Positions 7,695 through 29,968 of a stretch of DNA of 39,954 bases are shown here, piece after piece. This DNA is from a virus (lineage: Duplodnaviria > Heunggongvirae > Uroviricota > Caudoviricetes): positions 1 through 39,954 of the IMG/VR virus record IMGVR_UViG_2563366978_000009. One strand, 5' to 3'. A program made the translations under genes and the position numbers. How positions within the stretch are numbered: position 1 is the first letter of the stretch; each line of letters opens with the position of its first letter. Under the pieces are notes generated by a model. That model searched no databases. It was given only the letters and a program-made list of their open reading frames with translations, and was not told the DNA's origin.

Positions 7695-7709
7695 TTACCT
7701 TAAAGGTAA
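7695..7709. promoter_or_regulatory. Operator palindrome TTACC-N5-GGTAA (perfect)
   Basis: TTACCTTAAAGGTAA, followed by a degenerate copy cTTGCTTTCAGGTGA at 7713..7727. Confidence 0.55.
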
Positions 7710-7802: not shown

Positions 7803-7892
7803 ATTTACATCGCACTCCTCTTGTGCCATAGTAATCGGGCACTGGCAAAATCCAGTGCCGGGATTGGTCTCCCGGATTACTAAGTGGCGCAT

Positions 7893-7915
7893 ACCACGCC
7901 AGACGTGGTTTTTTT
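7893..7915 (+). terminator. Intrinsic terminator or attenuator inside the long leader of the AntA-type gene
   Basis: ACCACG CCAGA CGTGGT followed by seven T, preceded by another 8-bp hairpin at 7837..7860, about 160 nt upstream of the ATG at 8074. Confidence 0.5.
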
Positions 7916-8073
7916 ATGCGTATAGCACAGTCATGCCAGAATTATGGTGGGCTGAATGGGGGTCCGAAAGGACGCCGGTACCACTTAGGCCGGTAAGACC
8001 AACTCCGTTCAGTTCACCACCATCTGATTGGTCTCAGCGGTGGTGATGTAATTCGCTAAGTGGAGACGCCATC

Positions 8074-23860: not shown

Positions 23861-24153
23861 TCCTGTTCACTGGCCTCTTTGGCCATCTTCAAATACTGTT
23901 CAGGGCAATGCGCCATAACGCGCTGAAACAGTTCCAGCGCCAGATTGCGTTGCCCCTCATTAAATGCCATTGCCATAGCATCCATCGGAGAGATAGCGGA
24001 AAACACCCGGCCTTTCTCCAGCACAGACCAGACAACGCGACGCCCCTGTTCACTGCTCATGACAAAGCGAATGTCATCAATTTCACGCTGTGCCATGTCA
24101 CGTTGCTTACGGGCGTTTTCTTCTTTCAGTTGATCGTCTTCGTAATCTGTCAT
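23857..24153 (-). CDS. Hypothetical small acidic head-assembly protein
   Basis: 98 aa; ATGA-type overlaps with the portal stop and scaffold start. Confidence 0.45.
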   Translation of the reverse strand: MTDYEDDQLKEENARKQRDMAQREIDDIRFVMSSEQGRRVVWSVLEKGRVFSAISPMDAMAMAFNEGQRNLALELFQRVMAHCPEQYLKMAKEASEQE

Positions 24154-25829
24154 TGTGATTGCCCACCCTGACCACTAACTGCATTCGCCATAGCTGACAA
24201 AACACTCGGATCCGAAGTTTTAGCTTCGCTTAGCGTCTTGGCACCCTGTGCCGCCGCCATCCCCATCTCCATCATTTGTTGCTGCTGTTGTTGCTGTGCC
24301 CGTTGCTGGCGAGCCTGCTCAACCTGTTCCTGCGGAACAATGACGGTTGGAGACACTCCGGACATATCAGCGAATGCATCGATCGCCTGATCAACGTTGA
24401 GTTTGTCGAGAGCTTCTGGTTTCGCTTGCGCAAGTTGACCAATGAAGTTGACCGTAGACGCCAGACTGGACAGGCCGATAGACTTCTGCGCCTGAGCCAT
24501 GACGGAAATGTATTCGACCTTCAGGGGCATACCTTCCATCGCGTCAGGCGGTGGCGGCAGCATGTTTTTACGCACCATCATCGAGAAAGCGCGGTCAATG
24601 AGAGGATTAAGACATTCGTCGTTCAGACGCTCCAGAACCGGCCCCAACATCAGAAGTTTTTCTTCTTTCATTTCGATCACCGCTTCAACAGGCATCGAGC
24701 GGGTATTGATGTTCTGCAACATCATGAACAGATCGACAAAGTAGGCGCTGTTAATGATTTGACGAGTGTCCTGAATGTCTGCCACCAAATCTGCTGTACT
24801 GGGGTTAACCAGATAAGCAGGCCTGAAGCCATCCTGACCAGTAATCTGATCGATATACGTGATGTCGCCAGGAAGAAGGGAGGCGCGCTGATTCTTGAGG
24901 GAAGTCGGAGCAACCATCGGCGGATTGGTGGCTTTATCAATCAACTGCGACTTGCGCTTCTGGAGAAGCTGCAATGCCTTAACAGGTCCAAGCGCCAGCA
25001 TACCCGGGCATGATGATCCATAAACATCTTCGCCATTAACTTCCCAGCGCGGAGCCATAATTGGAAACTCATCGAATCCGGACTCACGCAACAACTTGTC
25101 GTTATCTCCACCAACCTCGTAATAAACCGATTTGAATGGCTTGTTCTTGCTATCCAGCTTCGATGTATCGCGGTCAATGTTCGGGTAAACCGAATGCATC
25201 ACTTCAATCCACTTCTCGTAGGTGCCGCTTTCCCACATGCTTTTTACGGATTCGCTGACGTTATTTAGCCCGAACTCCTGAACAAGCTGACGAACAGTCA
25301 TAGAGAACTTGCGAAAACAGGTGTCAACACTGCCACGAGGTGAGTTAGCCAGGTAGTAACTGCCTATCGGGAATGGCATTGTGCGAATGATGTCCTCGTC
25401 ATCCTCCAGCACTGCCATTGCACCAGTGCTGTATGTGCCGAGGCTTCCGTATAACTGCGGAAGAGACTGGTAGAGATTCGACTTATTGAACATATCGTTC
25501 ATGCGGTTCTGAACTGCCTCAAGCCACAACTTAACAGGGCCATAATCCATCATTTCAGGATCTGGCGTAGCCAGGCGAAACCACGGACGCGCGGGGCTTG
25601 TGATGCCTGACATCATGCCGCTGGCGAGAGTGCGCGCCGCCATAGTCCCGGTCGAATCAATAATGCGTGTATTGCGCCGATCGTTACGGTTGACCTCAGA
25701 AGTCAGAAAGCGGGAACCACGCGGGTTGATGTAATCACTCAACTCGCGCCAGTGCGGCTCGAACGACTGACGCTCGCTTTCAAGTTGTGCGAACTGTTTG
25801 TTCAATCGCTCTTTAGTTGTTTCCGCCAT
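24150..25829 (-). CDS. Portal protein, T7 gp8-like
   Basis: 559 aa, downstream of the large terminase; Gln-rich C-terminus (QARQQRAQQQQQQQMMEMGMAAAQGAK) resembles the gp8 C-terminus as recalled. Confidence 0.7.
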   Translation of the reverse strand: MAETTKERLNKQFAQLESERQSFEPHWRELSDYINPRGSRFLTSEVNRNDRRNTRIIDSTGTMAARTLASGMMSGITSPARPWFRLATPDPEMMDYGPVKLWLEAVQNRMNDMFNKSNLYQSLPQLYGSLGTYSTGAMAVLEDDEDIIRTMPFPIGSYYLANSPRGSVDTCFRKFSMTVRQLVQEFGLNNVSESVKSMWESGTYEKWIEVMHSVYPNIDRDTSKLDSKNKPFKSVYYEVGGDNDKLLRESGFDEFPIMAPRWEVNGEDVYGSSCPGMLALGPVKALQLLQKRKSQLIDKATNPPMVAPTSLKNQRASLLPGDITYIDQITGQDGFRPAYLVNPSTADLVADIQDTRQIINSAYFVDLFMMLQNINTRSMPVEAVIEMKEEKLLMLGPVLERLNDECLNPLIDRAFSMMVRKNMLPPPPDAMEGMPLKVEYISVMAQAQKSIGLSSLASTVNFIGQLAQAKPEALDKLNVDQAIDAFADMSGVSPTVIVPQEQVEQARQQRAQQQQQQQMMEMGMAAAQGAKTLSEAKTSDPSVLSAMANAVSGQGGQSQ

Positions 25830-25843
25830 TTCAATGACTCCGG

Positions 25844-26050
25844 TTACTGACCAAGTAGCGTTTTACCGCTGGTATTAGCGGTTGATGTGTCGCCCTGAGA
25901 ACCGGTAAGCAGCGTAGAACTACGACCAGCAGCAGCGCGACGGCGACGTGTTTCTTCGTCGCGAGCATCAACAACGGCGGCATCCTGCTCCTGTGGTGCT
26001 GCCTGAACTTCTGGTGTTGCAGGCACTGATGGTGAGCTACCCATGCACAT
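25844..26050 (-). CDS. Hypothetical small protein upstream of portal
   Basis: 68 aa, GGAG RBS; Ala/Pro/Glu-rich; could be spurious. Confidence 0.3.
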   Translation of the reverse strand: MCMGSSPSVPATPEVQAAPQEQDAAVVDARDEETRRRRAAAGRSSTLLTGSQGDTSTANTSGKTLLGQ

Positions 26051-26118: not shown

Positions 26119-26155
26119 TTGACATTTAACGCACAAATTATTACCTTTCAGGTAA
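26119..26155. promoter_or_regulatory. TTGACA -35 element followed by operator palindrome TTACC-N5-GGTAA (perfect, 26141..26155)
   Basis: TTGACA at 26119..26124; TTACCTTTCAGGTAA 17 nt downstream; candidate promoter for the plus-strand tRNA island. No clear -10. Confidence 0.45.
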
Positions 26156-26477
26156 GTAAAGGATTCATTCCGGTTATTAACCTGACTGGCTTGTCGTTAA
26201 ATTGAACAGGTGGAGTGAGCTTTTATTTTGAGCAGTACGGCGTATGGCACATGCGCCGATAGCGGTCTGGATACGTTTAAGGGGCACCCTCCCTTGCTCG
26301 GGCAAACGAACCAGGTAGCCGGAATGTGCAAGTCGAGCGGTTTTATTCCGCGCACGGGGATTCACCATCCCGGCGATTCGGTGTGACGCCTCGGAAGAGA
26401 CGAGGGTACAACGATGAGAGCATTTATGGAGCCGCGACAAAGTGTGGTGCCTTAACAGGCTAAGTGCTCTCAGCGTT

Positions 26478-26554
26478 GTGGCATTAGCTCAGTTGGACAG
26501 AGCAACCGCCTTCTAAGCGGTTGGTCGCAGGTTCGAATCCTGCATGCCACGCCA
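26478..26554 (+). tRNA. tRNA-Arg (anticodon UCU), phage-encoded
   Basis: Hand-folded cloverleaf: acceptor GUGGCAU/AUGCCAC, D-arm GCUC-AGUUGGACA-GAGC, anticodon stem ACCGC/GCGGU with loop CUUCUAA, T-arm GCAGG-UUCGAAU-CCUGC, discriminator G, encoded CCA. Confidence 0.9.
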
Positions 26555-26597
26555 GAATCACGCCTAAGGACCGTGATGCCAGAAGTTCCAGGGGCTT

Positions 26598-26639
26598 GGC
26601 GGTGATGGTTTCCCTTGAAGGACTATCACCGCCCTTTTT
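26598..26639 (+). terminator. Hairpin plus T-run downstream of the tRNA
   Basis: GGCGGTGAT / ATCACCGCC 9-bp stem, 18-nt loop, then CTTTTT. Confidence 0.45.
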
Positions 26640-26717
26640 ACAGCAGGACGCCATTGCGATGACTTCATGCTGTAAACCAGTACAGCCACGGAAGGCATAA
26701 CTCATTGCTTCCAGTTC

Positions 26718-26741
26718 GCCCGGTTCGCCGGGCATTTTTTT
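26718..26741 (+). terminator. Rho-independent terminator
   Basis: GCCCGG TTCG CCGGGC followed by A and seven T. Confidence 0.7.
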
Positions 26742-26757
26742 GCTTGATGACCGCAAA

Positions 26758-26772
26758 TTACCTTAAAGGTAT
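26758..26772. promoter_or_regulatory. Operator palindrome TTACC-N5-GGTAT (one mismatch) fused to a TATAAT -10
   Basis: TTACCTTAAAGGTATAAT; TATAAT at 26770..26775. Confidence 0.5.
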
Positions 26773-26800
26773 AATCATGAAAAACTTCAAGGTAATTAGC

Positions 26801-27595
26801 ATGTTTGAATCCTTCAAAGAGCTGTTTTTATCTACTGCCAATACTGCCGTGAATCGAGCCAAAAACCCTGTGCTTGGTGCTTTTGTTATGTCCTGGTGCG
26901 CCTTCAACTGGAAATCAATTCTTTATCTATTTTTTAGCAAATCAAACATAATAGATAAAATTTCATATATCTCAGATAACAGCACATGGAAAACTGTTAT
27001 GTTTTATCCATGCTTATCTGTAATTGCTATCTGCTGCCTATTACCATGGGTAAACAATATCATTAACGTATGGCAAGCAAAGCCTCTTGATAATAATGAC
27101 TCAATCGATAATCACCTGAAGGCAAGAAAAATCCAGCGTGAAACCAGACTGCAGAGGTTATTGGCTAAAAAAGATGTTACATACGACAAAGTTAAGACTG
27201 GCGCGGAAAAAGACATCCAAGAGATGAAAGAAGAGATTATTCGATCAAAGAATAGTATGGGGGAATTGACTGCCGAGTTGAAAGCTAAAGATGACGAATT
27301 GAGATCCGCCAGTGCTCAGTTAGCAGCTCTAAATCATTCATTAAAAGAGATATCGGAAACTCTGGGAAGAATGAATGAGGCATATAAGACCCTCCAAAAT
27401 GATTTCGACGAATACAAACTCAAATACCCTGAAAAATCTCAAATAAAAAGTCTTGCACTTGGCAACGGCCAAACAATTAGCAACTTTTTGGAGCAACACA
27501 ACTTATCCGGATTAAAATCTGGTAAGCCAGACGTTTTTAATAACTTTGGTGTTCTATCTGGATTATCAGGTTTCGAGGATAAAAATAAAGACTAA
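26801..27595 (+). CDS. Membrane protein with two N-terminal TM helices and a long C-terminal coiled coil
   Basis: Start at 26801 with AAGG RBS (alternative ATG at 26777 abuts the -10). Low GC; opposite strand to the flanking terminase and portal genes. No family recognised. Confidence 0.6.
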   Translation: MFESFKELFLSTANTAVNRAKNPVLGAFVMSWCAFNWKSILYLFFSKSNIIDKISYISDNSTWKTVMFYPCLSVIAICCLLPWVNNIINVWQAKPLDNNDSIDNHLKARKIQRETRLQRLLAKKDVTYDKVKTGAEKDIQEMKEEIIRSKNSMGELTAELKAKDDELRSASAQLAALNHSLKEISETLGRMNEAYKTLQNDFDEYKLKYPEKSQIKSLALGNGQTISNFLEQHNLSGLKSGKPDVFNNFGVLSGLSGFEDKNKD

Positions 27596-29067
27596 GCATA
27601 TGGATCGTACTCGGTAAGCGCCTTGCCTTGCTGGTTCTGCTGCCCGGGAATTCGCAGACGCTTCGACACAGGGAACGCAAACGTCAGCAGTAGCGCATCG
27701 CCTTTACCAGGAGAACGCCCAAGCCGCTCCTTGATATCTTCCTTCGGTTCGATAACGATTTTACCGTCCACTCGAACTTTGTACTCTGCCGCAGACAGGT
27801 CGTCCGCTGTTTCCTGGTCATCCAGCATGCCGCCCAGCCTCAGCCATGTCTTGCATGAGTTGAACATCTCCCCACGCTTGTTGAGCATCTGCGGGTCAGT
27901 AGACGCGCCACCGAACGGAACAAGTTGCCATGTACGACCCCAGCCATCACCGATTGACTTCAGACCAGTTCCGTAACCGAAGTCGATGAACACTGCGTCA
28001 GCCTGGTACTGGTCTTCAAAGTCAGCGATACGCTTCGCCATAATCAGATCGTCAGTGGTCTTGTTGCCAGTCCACAGCACCTTACTGTGCAGCCCCTGCC
28101 GCAGGTATATCACAGCGTCATCAACGCCTGAGTATGCCGGGTCAACGCCGATTATCACCGGAGCATGTGCAACCTGCGCAGCGGTTACCACCCGTTTCAT
28201 TGCCTCGTCAGTAAGACCGGTAGGGATAAACTGCAATTCAGATGCATCAGGGAATATGCCACGCACACGGATTTTAACGAAGTCGCTGTCTTCCCCGTAG
28301 TCATCAACCCATTTCTGCAACTGCTGTTTGTTGGTACCTTCCACCGTCCGACTGTCAATCTGCGCGGTTTTCCAGCGGTGTTTATACTTGCGGAAACATT
28401 CACGGAAACGTCCGGTATTACGCGTCGGGTTTCCGAACGCCACCCAGATAATCTCAGTGTCTTCGTCAGTTAGTGCACCCTCGGCAACTTCCCACACCAG
28501 ATCCGCAATGTTCGACGCTTCATCGAATACCACGATGATGCGTTTGCGCTCGTTGTGTAGTCCGGCGAATGCCTCAGTGTTGTGCTCAGACCAGGGGATT
28601 GCGTCAGCTCGCCACCGCTTGTCGTGCCCAGGATCATTGCTGTACATAGCGGTAGCGGTACAGGTAAACCAGTCTTTCGTGATAGCAAGGTTCGACCACT
28701 TGATAATTTCCGGCCAGGTCTTCGTTCGTAGCTGGTTGTCGGTGTTGGCGGTCACCACGACCTTACAATCCTCGCAAGTGGACATGCCCCAGTTGATCAG
28801 CATTGAGATGAATGCGGATTTACCAATACCGTGACCAGAAGCGCGTGCCAGCATAAGCGGCTGATAGCGCATCTCTGGATTCTGCAGGTGGTCACGTATC
28901 TCTCGGAACGCATCGGCCTGCCACTGACGTGGACCGGTAGCATGTGCCAGTTCAGTCCCCTCTTCCCCCCACGGGAACGCATAGAGGGCATAACCAAGCG
29001 GATCGTGAGTAAACCCTGCAATATCCTCGATCAACTGCTCTTCAGGAGATAACACTGTATCTGTCAC
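27592..29067 (-). CDS. Terminase large subunit
   Basis: 491 aa; Walker A-like GHGIGKS; upstream of portal, downstream of the small-subunit gene with a 4-nt overlap. Confidence 0.7.
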   Translation of the reverse strand: MTDTVLSPEEQLIEDIAGFTHDPLGYALYAFPWGEEGTELAHATGPRQWQADAFREIRDHLQNPEMRYQPLMLARASGHGIGKSAFISMLINWGMSTCEDCKVVVTANTDNQLRTKTWPEIIKWSNLAITKDWFTCTATAMYSNDPGHDKRWRADAIPWSEHNTEAFAGLHNERKRIIVVFDEASNIADLVWEVAEGALTDEDTEIIWVAFGNPTRNTGRFRECFRKYKHRWKTAQIDSRTVEGTNKQQLQKWVDDYGEDSDFVKIRVRGIFPDASELQFIPTGLTDEAMKRVVTAAQVAHAPVIIGVDPAYSGVDDAVIYLRQGLHSKVLWTGNKTTDDLIMAKRIADFEDQYQADAVFIDFGYGTGLKSIGDGWGRTWQLVPFGGASTDPQMLNKRGEMFNSCKTWLRLGGMLDDQETADDLSAAEYKVRVDGKIVIEPKEDIKERLGRSPGKGDALLLTFAFPVSKRLRIPGQQNQQGKALTEYDPYA

Positions 29068-29660
29068 TGATTACCATCCTGACGTTCTTTGAGTCGCTTC
29101 CTGGCTGCTGCTATGCGATCAGCAATTGTCACATTCACATTAACATCCAGGCGTTCTTTGAATGCGTTGACGTCGACGTGCTTACCAATCAGTTCGAGGT
29201 TCTTCACCTTGTCAGGCCATTTAATTTTTTTGAGGATTGTCTCTATCGAATCCTCGTTCATGTTCATGATGGTCGATGACAGATCAAAGCCGCTAAGCGT
29301 AGTGCGCCAGATTTTCGGCCACTCGCGGATTGGCTTAAGGCTCCCATCGTCGTTGAGGATGTCGATCACGTCCATCTGGTCGATCTCCACCAGGCGCATG
29401 AGAACGTAATCAGCACTGACGCGCATTCGTTTGTTGCGCTCCTCCATCAACTCGGCAATCCGTTTCTGAATGCGTTCATCGCGCATCATGACACTGGCTT
29501 TAACTGCCGCTGTATTTGGGGAGAATCCTGCGTTAATCGCAGCCTGAGTCTGATTTTCAGGCGTTTTGATGTATGACTGGCAATAAGCCTCCTGCATTGC
29601 TGTTAGTGGCTTAAATTGCGTTGATTTGCGTTTATAGGTTTTAGGTTCAGCAGGCATCAT
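29064..29660 (-). CDS. Terminase small subunit
   Basis: Start MMPAEPKTYKRK at 29660 with GGTGG RBS; the longer ORF to 29738 adds a poly-Thr extension; position before terL. Confidence 0.55.
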   Translation of the reverse strand: MMPAEPKTYKRKSTQFKPLTAMQEAYCQSYIKTPENQTQAAINAGFSPNTAAVKASVMMRDERIQKRIAELMEERNKRMRVSADYVLMRLVEIDQMDVIDILNDDGSLKPIREWPKIWRTTLSGFDLSSTIMNMNEDSIETILKKIKWPDKVKNLELIGKHVDVNAFKERLDVNVNVTIADRIAAARKRLKERQDGNQ

Positions 29661-29734
29661 AACCACCGTGGTAATAGTTACCGTTGTGGTAATAGTACCA
29701 TGCAAAATAAAGCCGCCATAGTTGGCGGCAGTAT

Positions 29735-29968
29735 TCAAAGTCCATCAAATTCATCGTAAAAACTCTCGTCAAGATACCCTTCCCATTTACCGCGAATGAA
29801 AATTACATCCTCGCCGCAAGGGTGCTGACTGTCGATAACTATATCCCTCCTGGCGCAACCATACTTATGCATGAGAAATTTAACCTCTTTCGGAAAATTT
29901 GCTGAGTTATCTCTCATATCTTCAAGGTCGTAGCGTATTTTTGGCATAACACCTTCGTGACATGTCAC
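29735..29968 (-). CDS. Hypothetical protein
   Basis: 77 aa ORF coupled between early and terminase genes. Confidence 0.4.
   Translation of the reverse strand: MTCHEGVMPKIRYDLEDMRDNSANFPKEVKFLMHKYGCARRDIVIDSQHPCGEDVIFIRGKWEGYLDESFYDEFDGL

Follow-up and report, generated by a model that had tools for sequence, protein, structure and literature searches.

A structured RNA family of temperate Enterobacterales phages adjoins the tRNA-Arg(UCU) gene of a Uetakevirus

We analysed the stretch between the portal and terminase genes of a 39,954-nucleotide (nt) phage genome (IMG/VR virus record IMGVR_UViG_2563366978_000009, positions 1 to 39,954; the window in what follows). The phage is a Uetakevirus (epsilon15/phiV10-like) and is 99% identical to TL-2011b and phiV10 at this region. 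An original prediction had placed here, at 26119-26640, a transfer RNA (tRNA) for arginine with the anticodon UCU behind a GC-rich leader, which was taken to be either a processed leader or a separate small RNA. We found that the leader carries a structured RNA core at 26237-26406 (+) and a covarying hairpin next to a canonical tRNA, and we conclude with high confidence that core and hairpin belong to a widespread, unannotated structured RNA family of temperate Enterobacterales phages. We rate the RNA as a new class; the tRNA was already known. The idea of a separate RNA was therefore right in kind, and the alternative of a tRNA leader fared poorly as the element is conserved without an adjacent tRNA.

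A BLAST search with positions 26119-26477 returned 86 phage records that fell into two classes. The first consisted of near-identical Uetakeviruses, and the second of unrelated temperate phages in which a segment of 170-240 nt starting at 26237 was matched with 70-83% identity. This second class included cdtI, mEp460, 2H10, Ayreon and Stx2c/Stx2a converting phages, P1, P7 and P1-like plasmids, together with Klebsiella, Salmonella and Enterobacter phages. The segment was detected in 1840 of 5426 complete E. coli genomes (about a third; 1472 over at least 80% of its length) and in 591 plasmids, mostly P1-like. Among the matches listed, the annotated feature at the segment was almost always 'none'. 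Most homologues were collected using an exact 18-mer from the centre of the segment (GTAGCCGGAATGTGCAAG), which was present in at least 120 IMG/VR contigs and in 27 GTDB species-representative contigs. Of the latter, 23 were true homologues, nearly all from Enterobacterales (Kosakonia, Citrobacter, Klebsiella, Enterobacter, Phytobacter, Kluyvera, Buttiauxella and Erwinia dacicola). Matches to the 18-mer in Bacteroides, Oscillospiraceae, Dysgonamonadaceae and Azonexus contigs were rejected as chance occurrences in unrelated sequence, scoring 9-14 bits with the covariance model R1 described below. Among 118 distinct contexts, 21 had a tRNA-Arg(UCU) at the same junction as the window, 14 (the P1/P7 type) had a tRNA-Ile2(CAU) ending 18 nt upstream, and 83 had neither tRNA adjacent, including one locus (L132) with an unrelated tRNA ~530 nt downstream. 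Because the core is conserved without this tRNA, lies near a different tRNA in P1/P7 and has its own covariation-supported pseudoknotted fold, the comparison indicates that it is an autonomous mobile RNA module that was fused to tRNA-Arg in this phage lineage.

To define the fold, 44 diverse core homologues were aligned with MAFFT with no structure fitting (alignment A2), and the structure was then read from the alignment and tested. On the + strand of the window the fold comprised helix P1 (26238-26246/26250-26258), helix P2 (26266-26270/26311-26315) enclosing a variable arm, a variable hairpin at ~26335-26355, helix P5 (26357-26361/26367-26371) and helix P6 (26389-26393/26401-26405) with the loop GGAAGAGA, and a pseudoknot joined the P5 loop CACC (26363-26366) to GGUG (26380-26383). 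Standard pairs made up 93.1% of 1225 cells as compared to 27-51% when the 3' partners were slid by 1-3 columns, and the observed values were reached by none of 500 shuffles. Both sides had changed in 13 of 28 pairs, among them A2 pairs 6-18 (GC 24/AU 19), 32-86 (CG 33/UA 11), 141-149 (four pair types), 173-184 (CG 29/GC 9) and the pseudoknot pair 144-164 (CG 38/AU 6). The arms within P2 and between P2 and P5 varied in length and sequence, like peripheral hairpins, and near-invariant strings (AGCGGUC, GGUAGCCGGAAUGUGCAAG, GGCGAU and GUGUGAC) lay between the core helices. The second of these strings, a 19-mer at 26314-26332 (+) with one copy in the window, was invariant in A2 and is the signature of the family. 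Its invariance is partly by construction because most members were collected with the exact 18-mer, and in 716R3, a relative found by BLAST, only CCGGAAUGUGCAAG of the 19-mer was kept. RNAalifold proposed in addition that the P1 loop GCACAU (26247-26252) pairs with AUGUGC (26324-26329) of the 19-mer. Both strings are invariant and covariation therefore neither supports nor rejects this long-range pairing, which could form.

The fold suited one strand better than the other. The + strand, which is that of the tRNA, was 93.1% paired in A2 as compared to 83.3% for its complement, a better fit that is explained by 149 G-U cells. No reading frame was conserved: the best frame was open in 18 of the 44 homologues and lengths fell in all three residues modulo 3. 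The open reading frames (ORFs) in the leader are short (52 and 45 amino acids [aa] on the + strand, 87 aa on the - strand) and none of their frames is conserved among relatives, which bears out the earlier view that the leader holds no credible ORF. A Hok-like identity of the 52-aa + strand ORF, read by eye, was rejected. The covariance model R1, built from A2, scored 133 bits on the window (E=4e-41) and 115-157 bits at every true locus, with exactly one copy per locus. No second copy was found in the window or near pR. Rfam 15 (4227 models) was run on the window with gathering thresholds and on the region and four related loci with E-value scans. No family matched 26119-26477 or its counterparts at the four related loci at E<10, and the only matches concerning core, hairpin and module were the tRNA and chance-level matches overlapping the tRNA or the terminators. 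In GenBank, 'hypothetical protein' coding sequences (CDSs) are placed over the tRNA, core or module in some records, often on the opposite strand (L003 2935-3186, PhiV10p04; L159 5943-6311, mEp460_037; L006 2711-2872, the Tyrion ORF among those over the region; L002 3782-3976). As no reading frame is conserved, these CDSs are probably annotation artefacts.

In most family members P6 is followed by a long hairpin (H) with the base RCAAC-GAUGAGAGCA / UGCUCUCAG-CGUUGU. This base was 94% paired in 24 distinct variants with compensatory changes, a value equalled by none of 500 shuffles. The hairpin of the window, H1, spans 26408-26479 (+), with its 5' strand ACAACGAUGAGAGCA at 26408-26422, its 3' strand UGCUCUCAGCGUUGU at 26465-26479 and a variable tip. 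H1 ends in the family junction GUU/GUGG, of which GUGG forms bases 1-4 of the tRNA acceptor stem in the window. The string GTT[GA]TGG matched 95 of the 118 distinct contexts, a few of these being false matches inside the hairpin, and the junction was present in about 90 of the 118. A further hairpin at the 5' side, H0 (26154-26228, +; 3' strand GGAGUGAGCUUUU), was taken from the minimum-free-energy fold and is the weakest of the parts. At its position the relatives Tyrion (L006), L140 and L142 carry ACAAC...GGAGUGCGCUUYC-AGGUGUGA, and H0 looks like a diverged copy of the H module of the family.

When no tRNA was present, the slot after the junction held a module of 78-210 nt closed by GUUGUGGUG / CACCACAAC (L008 4157-4291, L006 ~2779-2911 and L002 3738-3852, for instance), with one hairpin 2-4 nt after the 5' strand and another abutting the 3' strand. 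In the commonest module type the loops of these two hairpins are complementary (GCUGAU / AUCAGC). The topology, with an acceptor-like stem, D-like and T-like arms in loop-loop contact and an expanded middle, would be tRNA-like. We keep this as a lead only because tRNA models found no match at E<1 in the non-tRNA modules of L002, L006 and L008 and because the closing helix barely varies. The short hairpin AUCACG...CGUGAU found immediately 3' of the tRNA in the window (26557-26577, +) was also found 3' of the non-tRNA module in L043, L067, L123 and L141. Several H and slot modules follow in series in L134, L103 and L142, and phages P1 and P7 carry the core without H or slot modules, so the core (~170 nt; 330-450 nt with modules) is the constant unit of the family.

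The tRNA itself was called by ARAGORN as the sole tRNA of the window, a tRNA-Arg with anticodon tct at 26478-26554 (+). It scored 73.3 bits with the Rfam tRNA model RF00005 (gathering score 29), its 3' CCA is genome-encoded (26552-26554), and it is annotated as tRNA-Arg in GenBank KP869107, KP869108 and MN187550. The tRNA of the original prediction is thus present. Arginine codon usage was counted using crude ORF calls and gave 7.2 AGA and 6.1 AGG per 1000 codons in the window phage; E. coli uses roughly 2 AGA and 1 AGG per 1000. AGA made up 28 of 87 arginine codons (32%) in five ORFs with G+C below 0.45 and 59 of 633 (9%) elsewhere. The tRNA plausibly serves AGA/AGG decoding, and these counts make the earlier suggestion of AGA supply for AT-rich cargo genes a plausible one. 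The window phage resembles others with rare-codon tRNAs (argU-like and ileX-like, in Stx phages and P1): the codons decoded by tRNA-Arg(UCU) here and by tRNA-Ile2(CAU) in P1 are the rarest in E. coli, and AGA and AGG are enriched in the AT-rich genes of the window phage. This likeness explains the tRNA only and not the conserved RNA that adjoins it.

The TTGACA element expected before the tRNA lies at 26120-26125 and is the -35 of a candidate sigma-70 promoter with operator (26120-26155, +), with a 17-nt spacer and a weak -10, TACCTT (26143-26148). The palindrome TTACCTTTCAGGTAA at 26141-26155 overlaps the -10. The earlier description of the region did not include this operator-like palindrome, the hairpin module or the conserved sequence at which the tRNA is joined. 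In related Uetakevirus-type loci the -35 and the palindrome are kept and the spacer is variable. With one mismatch allowed, the window holds 16 copies of TTACC-N5-GGTAA where 0.86 would be expected, and most of them are in intergenic or promoter sequence. The sites lie within 2949-36183 and include 6574, 7695, 7788, 8802, 26141, 26758, 29660, 29678, 33002, 33064, 35010, 35347, 35395, 36107 and 36169. Phage P1 has a dispersed set of repressor operators, to which these scattered copies are similar, and we infer that TTACC-N5-GGTAA is the repressor operator of the window phage and that 26120-26155 would be an active promoter bound by the repressor. A terminator scan found both of the terminators predicted after the tRNA on the + strand. 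T1 (26598-26633, U run to ~26640) is a stem of 14 base pairs (bp) followed by CUUUUU, and T2 (26718-26733, U run to ~26741), which lies beyond the end of the region first described, is GCCCGG-UUCG-CCGGGC followed by AUUUUUUU. Downstream of them is a promoter-like site at 26747-26775 (10 of 12 matches) that is overlapped by a second operator-like palindrome at 26758.

Expression context was compared among relatives. In lambdoid phages the RNA lies directly after the cI terminator and behind a TTGACA-16-CATAAT promoter, and the spacer of this promoter holds ATGTACC-N6-ATACAT, an operator that is also found between cI and cro. Lying behind an operator-bearing promoter after cI, the RNA would be the first element on the repressor-controlled early-left (pL) transcript. 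The same layout of cI, RNA and early-left genes was found with different repressors in the UTI89 and WL7562 prophages and in mEp460, mEp390, 716R3 and BUCT708. Long-loop terminators in the lambdoids were missed by a simple terminator finder, and were read by eye and are less certain. In P1 and P7 the RNA lies inside the C1-controlled ban operon, between trnI and ban and ~100 nt before ban. In the P1 record NC_005856 the core (71023-71198; L158 1501-1676; 126.5 bits with R1) sits in the 286-bp gap between trnI and ban, and none of the 535 features of the record is annotated at the core in this gap. In all three phage types the RNA thus seems to be turned on once repression is lifted, and this speaks for a role early in the lytic cycle and against a 'moron' of lysogenic conversion. 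CRISPR interference knock-down at trnI and ban in P1 scored both as non-essential in a laboratory host (PMC10695390). As such knock-down is polar, this suggests that the RNA is accessory. The Klebsiella phage SopranoGao (Lastavirus; L161 1938-2097) carried a full-length core (120 bits with R1) after its lysis genes near the genome end, a fourth context type.

Together these features suggest a model in which 26120-26741 would be a self-contained transcription unit yielding RNA only. Transcription would start at the TTGACA promoter, and the putative repressor operator covering its -10 would keep the unit off in the lysogen and let it be expressed early in the lytic cycle. One primary transcript of ~480 nt, running roughly from 26157 to 26640 and stopping at the two tandem terminators, would be cut by RNase P at 26477/26478; this would free tRNA-Arg and leave the structured RNA, ~320 nt when counted from the start site, with a precise 3' end at GUU/GUGG. 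In relatives without the tRNA the same slot would be filled by the stem-closed module of tRNA-like topology. We consider it probable that the unit is repressor-controlled and that its two products are separated by RNase P. The RNA would then be a free, non-essential early lytic product acting on a conserved host or defence component, perhaps one linked to tRNA or translation, and not on its own transcript, and tRNA-Arg would supply AGA decoding for AT-rich cargo genes. This functional part, a free accessory trans-acting RNA plus a decoding tRNA, is tentative and in our view slightly more doubtful than credible. Trans action is preferred because the unit encodes only RNA and is sealed by two strong terminators, with the next gene having its own promoter and operator, and because the module has moved among three unrelated phage architectures and kept only its early timing. 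The best explanation overall, held with somewhat more belief than doubt, is an accessory early RNA that is co-transcribed with a tRNA and parted from it by tRNA processing.

Several points weigh against this explanation. The transcription unit was read here from the sequence alone, the consensus scan did not score the promoter at 26120-26155 because TACCTT is a weak -10, and the proposed RNase P cut follows the general biology of tRNAs. The two final bases of H1 are also part of the acceptor stem of the tRNA, and folding could therefore compete with processing. The description of the other modules as tRNA-like draws on topology and one complementary loop pair, with a closing helix that hardly varies, and collection by an exact 18-mer inflates the apparent invariance of the family and narrows its taxonomic range. 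In lambdoids the RNA lies exactly at the nutL/putL position with terminator-like hairpins before the first ORF, and in 716R3 and P1 it is part of the 5' untranslated region of the gene directly after it; both arrangements fit a role in cis.

The main rival is accordingly a cis-acting antitermination leader (put-like, nut/rrn-like, or an anti-Rho device for a long untranslated transcript) that acts only on its own transcript, a reading that we regard as rather unlikely. It is favoured by the position of the RNA as the first element of a repressor-controlled early-left transcript in at least four lambdoid immunity types, and by the terminator-like hairpins between RNA and first ORF in 2H10, BUCT708 and mEp390. 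No N-like arginine-rich motif was seen in the first ORFs downstream in 2H10 and BUCT708, and no such protein is annotated in mEp460. Tandem terminators at the end of the unit also recall rrn operons. In rrn antitermination boxA, UGCUCUUU, is accompanied by a GU-rich boxC, and boxA (core GCUCUUUA) is single-stranded and bound by NusB-NusE. The 3' strand of H (AGUGCUCU(U/C)NNC-GUUGUGG, or AGUGCUCUUUCC-GUUGUGG) resembles this boxA and boxC, UGCUCUUU or UGCUCUCA occurs in many members, and some members carry a GAAA-type boxB-like hairpin, GCCNGGAAAGACNGGC. In L160 (1870-1900), L162 (2283-2310) and L142 (upstream of the H modules) this hairpin is followed by ACACAAC and an H hairpin with the 3' strand GUGCGCUYCC-AGUUGUG, a series reminiscent in shape of a boxB-boxA-boxC arrangement. 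The likeness, however, concerns the hairpin module and not the core, and the boxA-like string lies inside a covarying helix (UGCUCUC, UGCUCUU, UGCGCUC) and for this reason would not be kept as a fixed protein site. A put RNA promotes terminator read-through in cis by binding RNA polymerase. In HK022, a lambdoid phage without N, put is cis-encoded; it measures ~70 nt, folds into two stem-loops and occurs at pL as well as at pR (PMC9378689). Lambdoid members of the present family likewise lie just downstream of pL, but the core is ~170 nt with four helices and a pseudoknot, is present in one copy and also occurs outside early-left leaders. R1 found nothing at E<=10 in the HK022 nun-pL-cI-cro-cII region (L157), and identity with the put family was rejected on this result and on size, fold and copy number (one per lambdoid locus spanning cI, cro and beyond). 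Against a cis leader of any kind, each phage has one copy and none downstream of pR, the RNA lies ~2.5 kb into the P1 operon, where knock-down at trnI and ban was non-essential, and in 716R3 no terminator follows it. In the window the unit is RNA-only with two strong terminators, the next gene has its own promoter and operator, and read-through would go antisense into the terminase gene.

Other readings are weaker. That the early transcript is controlled or cut by the core, acting as a ligand-sensing riboswitch or as a self-cleaving or processing ribozyme, seems quite improbable to us. In its size, its pseudoknots, its invariant nucleotides at junctions and the variability of its peripheral arms the core is like a typical aptamer or ribozyme, it lies upstream of genes in lambdoids, P1 and 716R3, and GUUGU could form a switch, as it can pair with RCAAC upstream to close H or, alternatively, with ACAAC downstream to close the next module. 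However, the class of the downstream gene is inconsistent and in the window only the tRNA follows, no expression platform is adjacent (terminators are more than 100 nt off, past the tRNA or module), and no Rfam riboswitch or ribozyme model matched. The region lies immediately upstream of a genuine tRNA on the same strand, as an ordinary precursor leader without a function of its own would, but it is far longer and more conserved than is usual for tRNA leaders, is 70-83% identical in phages without this tRNA (neither tRNA-Arg nor tRNA-Ile2 being adjacent in 83 of the 118 contexts) and has a covariation-supported pseudoknotted fold, and such a leader is scarcely credible. Least credible of all is that a protein-coding gene or a DNA site (att, pac, origin or recombination linker) accounts for the conservation. 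The 'hypothetical protein' CDSs of PhiV10p04, mEp460_037 and Tyrion and the GUUGUGG...CCACAAC inverted repeats flanking the variable cassette are in its favour. Against it, no frame is open in more than 18 of the 44 homologues, lengths fall in all residues modulo 3, substitutions in the helices are compensatory, G-U pairs favour one strand, and the published attP of the phage group is a different sequence (PMC9782041). Further ideas were tried by eye and dropped as the bases vary among members or the sites are too few: an interaction of core GAUUCG with the tRNA T-loop, T-box-like UGGN, CsrA-type GGA, and identity with tmRNA, RNase P RNA or a group I intron.

An accessory RNA parted from a tRNA has partial parallels. 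In MALAT1-mascRNA, in RNase P action on the C4 RNA of P1/P7 and in DicF, which is cut from a prophage early operon, the end of a non-coding RNA is set by cutting of an adjoining tRNA or tRNA-like fold. The GUU/GUGG junction of the window is likewise the predicted RNase P site of tRNA-Arg; the non-tRNA modules differ in that tRNA models do not recognise them. GOLLD and ROOL are pseudoknotted phage and prophage RNAs near tRNA islands that have no known function or protein partner; the GOLLD linker sometimes contains tRNAs, and GOLLD levels increase in the lytic cycle (PMC12286853). The present RNA is also phage-borne and pseudoknotted, is linked to tRNA in two of its three main contexts and has putative early lytic promoters. 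It differs in size (a 170-nt core, or 330-450 nt with modules, as compared to about 580 to more than 800 nt) and in its Enterobacterales phage hosts, and the GOLLD and ROOL models, both in Rfam 15, gave no match at E<10. The likeness is one of kind and not of homology.

The genes around the unit are consistent with a location between portal and terminase genes on the opposite strand. The flanking genes on the - strand comprise a portal gene (24150-25829; Pfam Head-tail_con, E=1.6e-187) and an ORF of 68 aa (25844-26050) and, at higher coordinates, a large terminase gene (27592-29067), which takes its name from the phiV10 annotation, and a small terminase gene (29064-29738; Pfam Terminase_2). 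The claim of opposite orientation holds for this portal and terminase side, and passed over a 272-aa ORF on the + strand (26777-27595, G+C 0.38) that follows both terminators, behind its own promoter-like site and operator-like palindrome. This ORF had no Pfam match above threshold; its N-terminal segments are hydrophobic and its C-terminal half is coiled-coil-like. phiV10 has a different gene of 123 aa at this place, similar to Sf6 gene 66, which indicates a variable cargo slot, and the 272-aa ORF may be an exclusion or abortive-infection gene. G+C is 0.54-0.58 across 26225-26600, 0.33-0.37 just upstream and 0.31-0.43 downstream. The higher G+C first noted for the leader is therefore a contrast with its immediate AT-rich flanks and not with the flanking structural genes, which are themselves at 0.5-0.59.

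Outside the family region the Rfam scan matched int-alpA and, side by side on the + strand, isrK (7839-7915, 67.7 bits) and C4 antisense RNA (7940-8024, 61.2 bits). The isrK/C4 pair (7839-8024) is flanked by the operator-like palindromes at 7695 and 7788, and looks like an antisense-RNA immunity module of the P1/P7 immI type in a podovirus. The pair was also found near Rha/antirepressor genes at the lambdoid loci L002 and L008.

A full-text literature search with six strings from core and module, written as DNA or RNA, did not find the family, which could nevertheless be listed without a name among the 10,006 candidate viral RNAs catalogued in 2023. A preprint on Pas small RNAs describes other, Hfq-type small RNAs near structural genes, and the paper on the Uetakevirus ZX5 mentions no such RNA. 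In practical terms, several GenBank 'hypothetical protein' ORFs over the region are probably spurious. If our reading is true, a complex pseudoknotted RNA has been overlooked in P1, in Stx2c prophages and those of the SfV/cdtI/mEp460 type and in roughly one in three complete E. coli genomes. The RNA might also account for the passage of early-left transcription through its terminators in lambdoids that lack N. A further reading, possible but doubtful, treats the core, its hairpin and the adjoining tRNA (or tRNA-like module) as a phage RNA device of a new class. It would be switched on at the start of the lytic cycle in three unrelated groups of temperate enterobacterial phages and, whether as ribozyme, decoy or scaffold, would act on a conserved target in the host that is connected with tRNA, translation or tRNA-directed defence. 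Such a device would be a small enterobacterial counterpart of GOLLD and ROOL in the best-studied phages (P1 and the lambdoid prophages of E. coli). GOLLD and ROOL raise the question of what ornate, tRNA-linked phage RNAs do in less tractable systems; P1 and lambdoid hosts are highly tractable, and the question would become directly testable.

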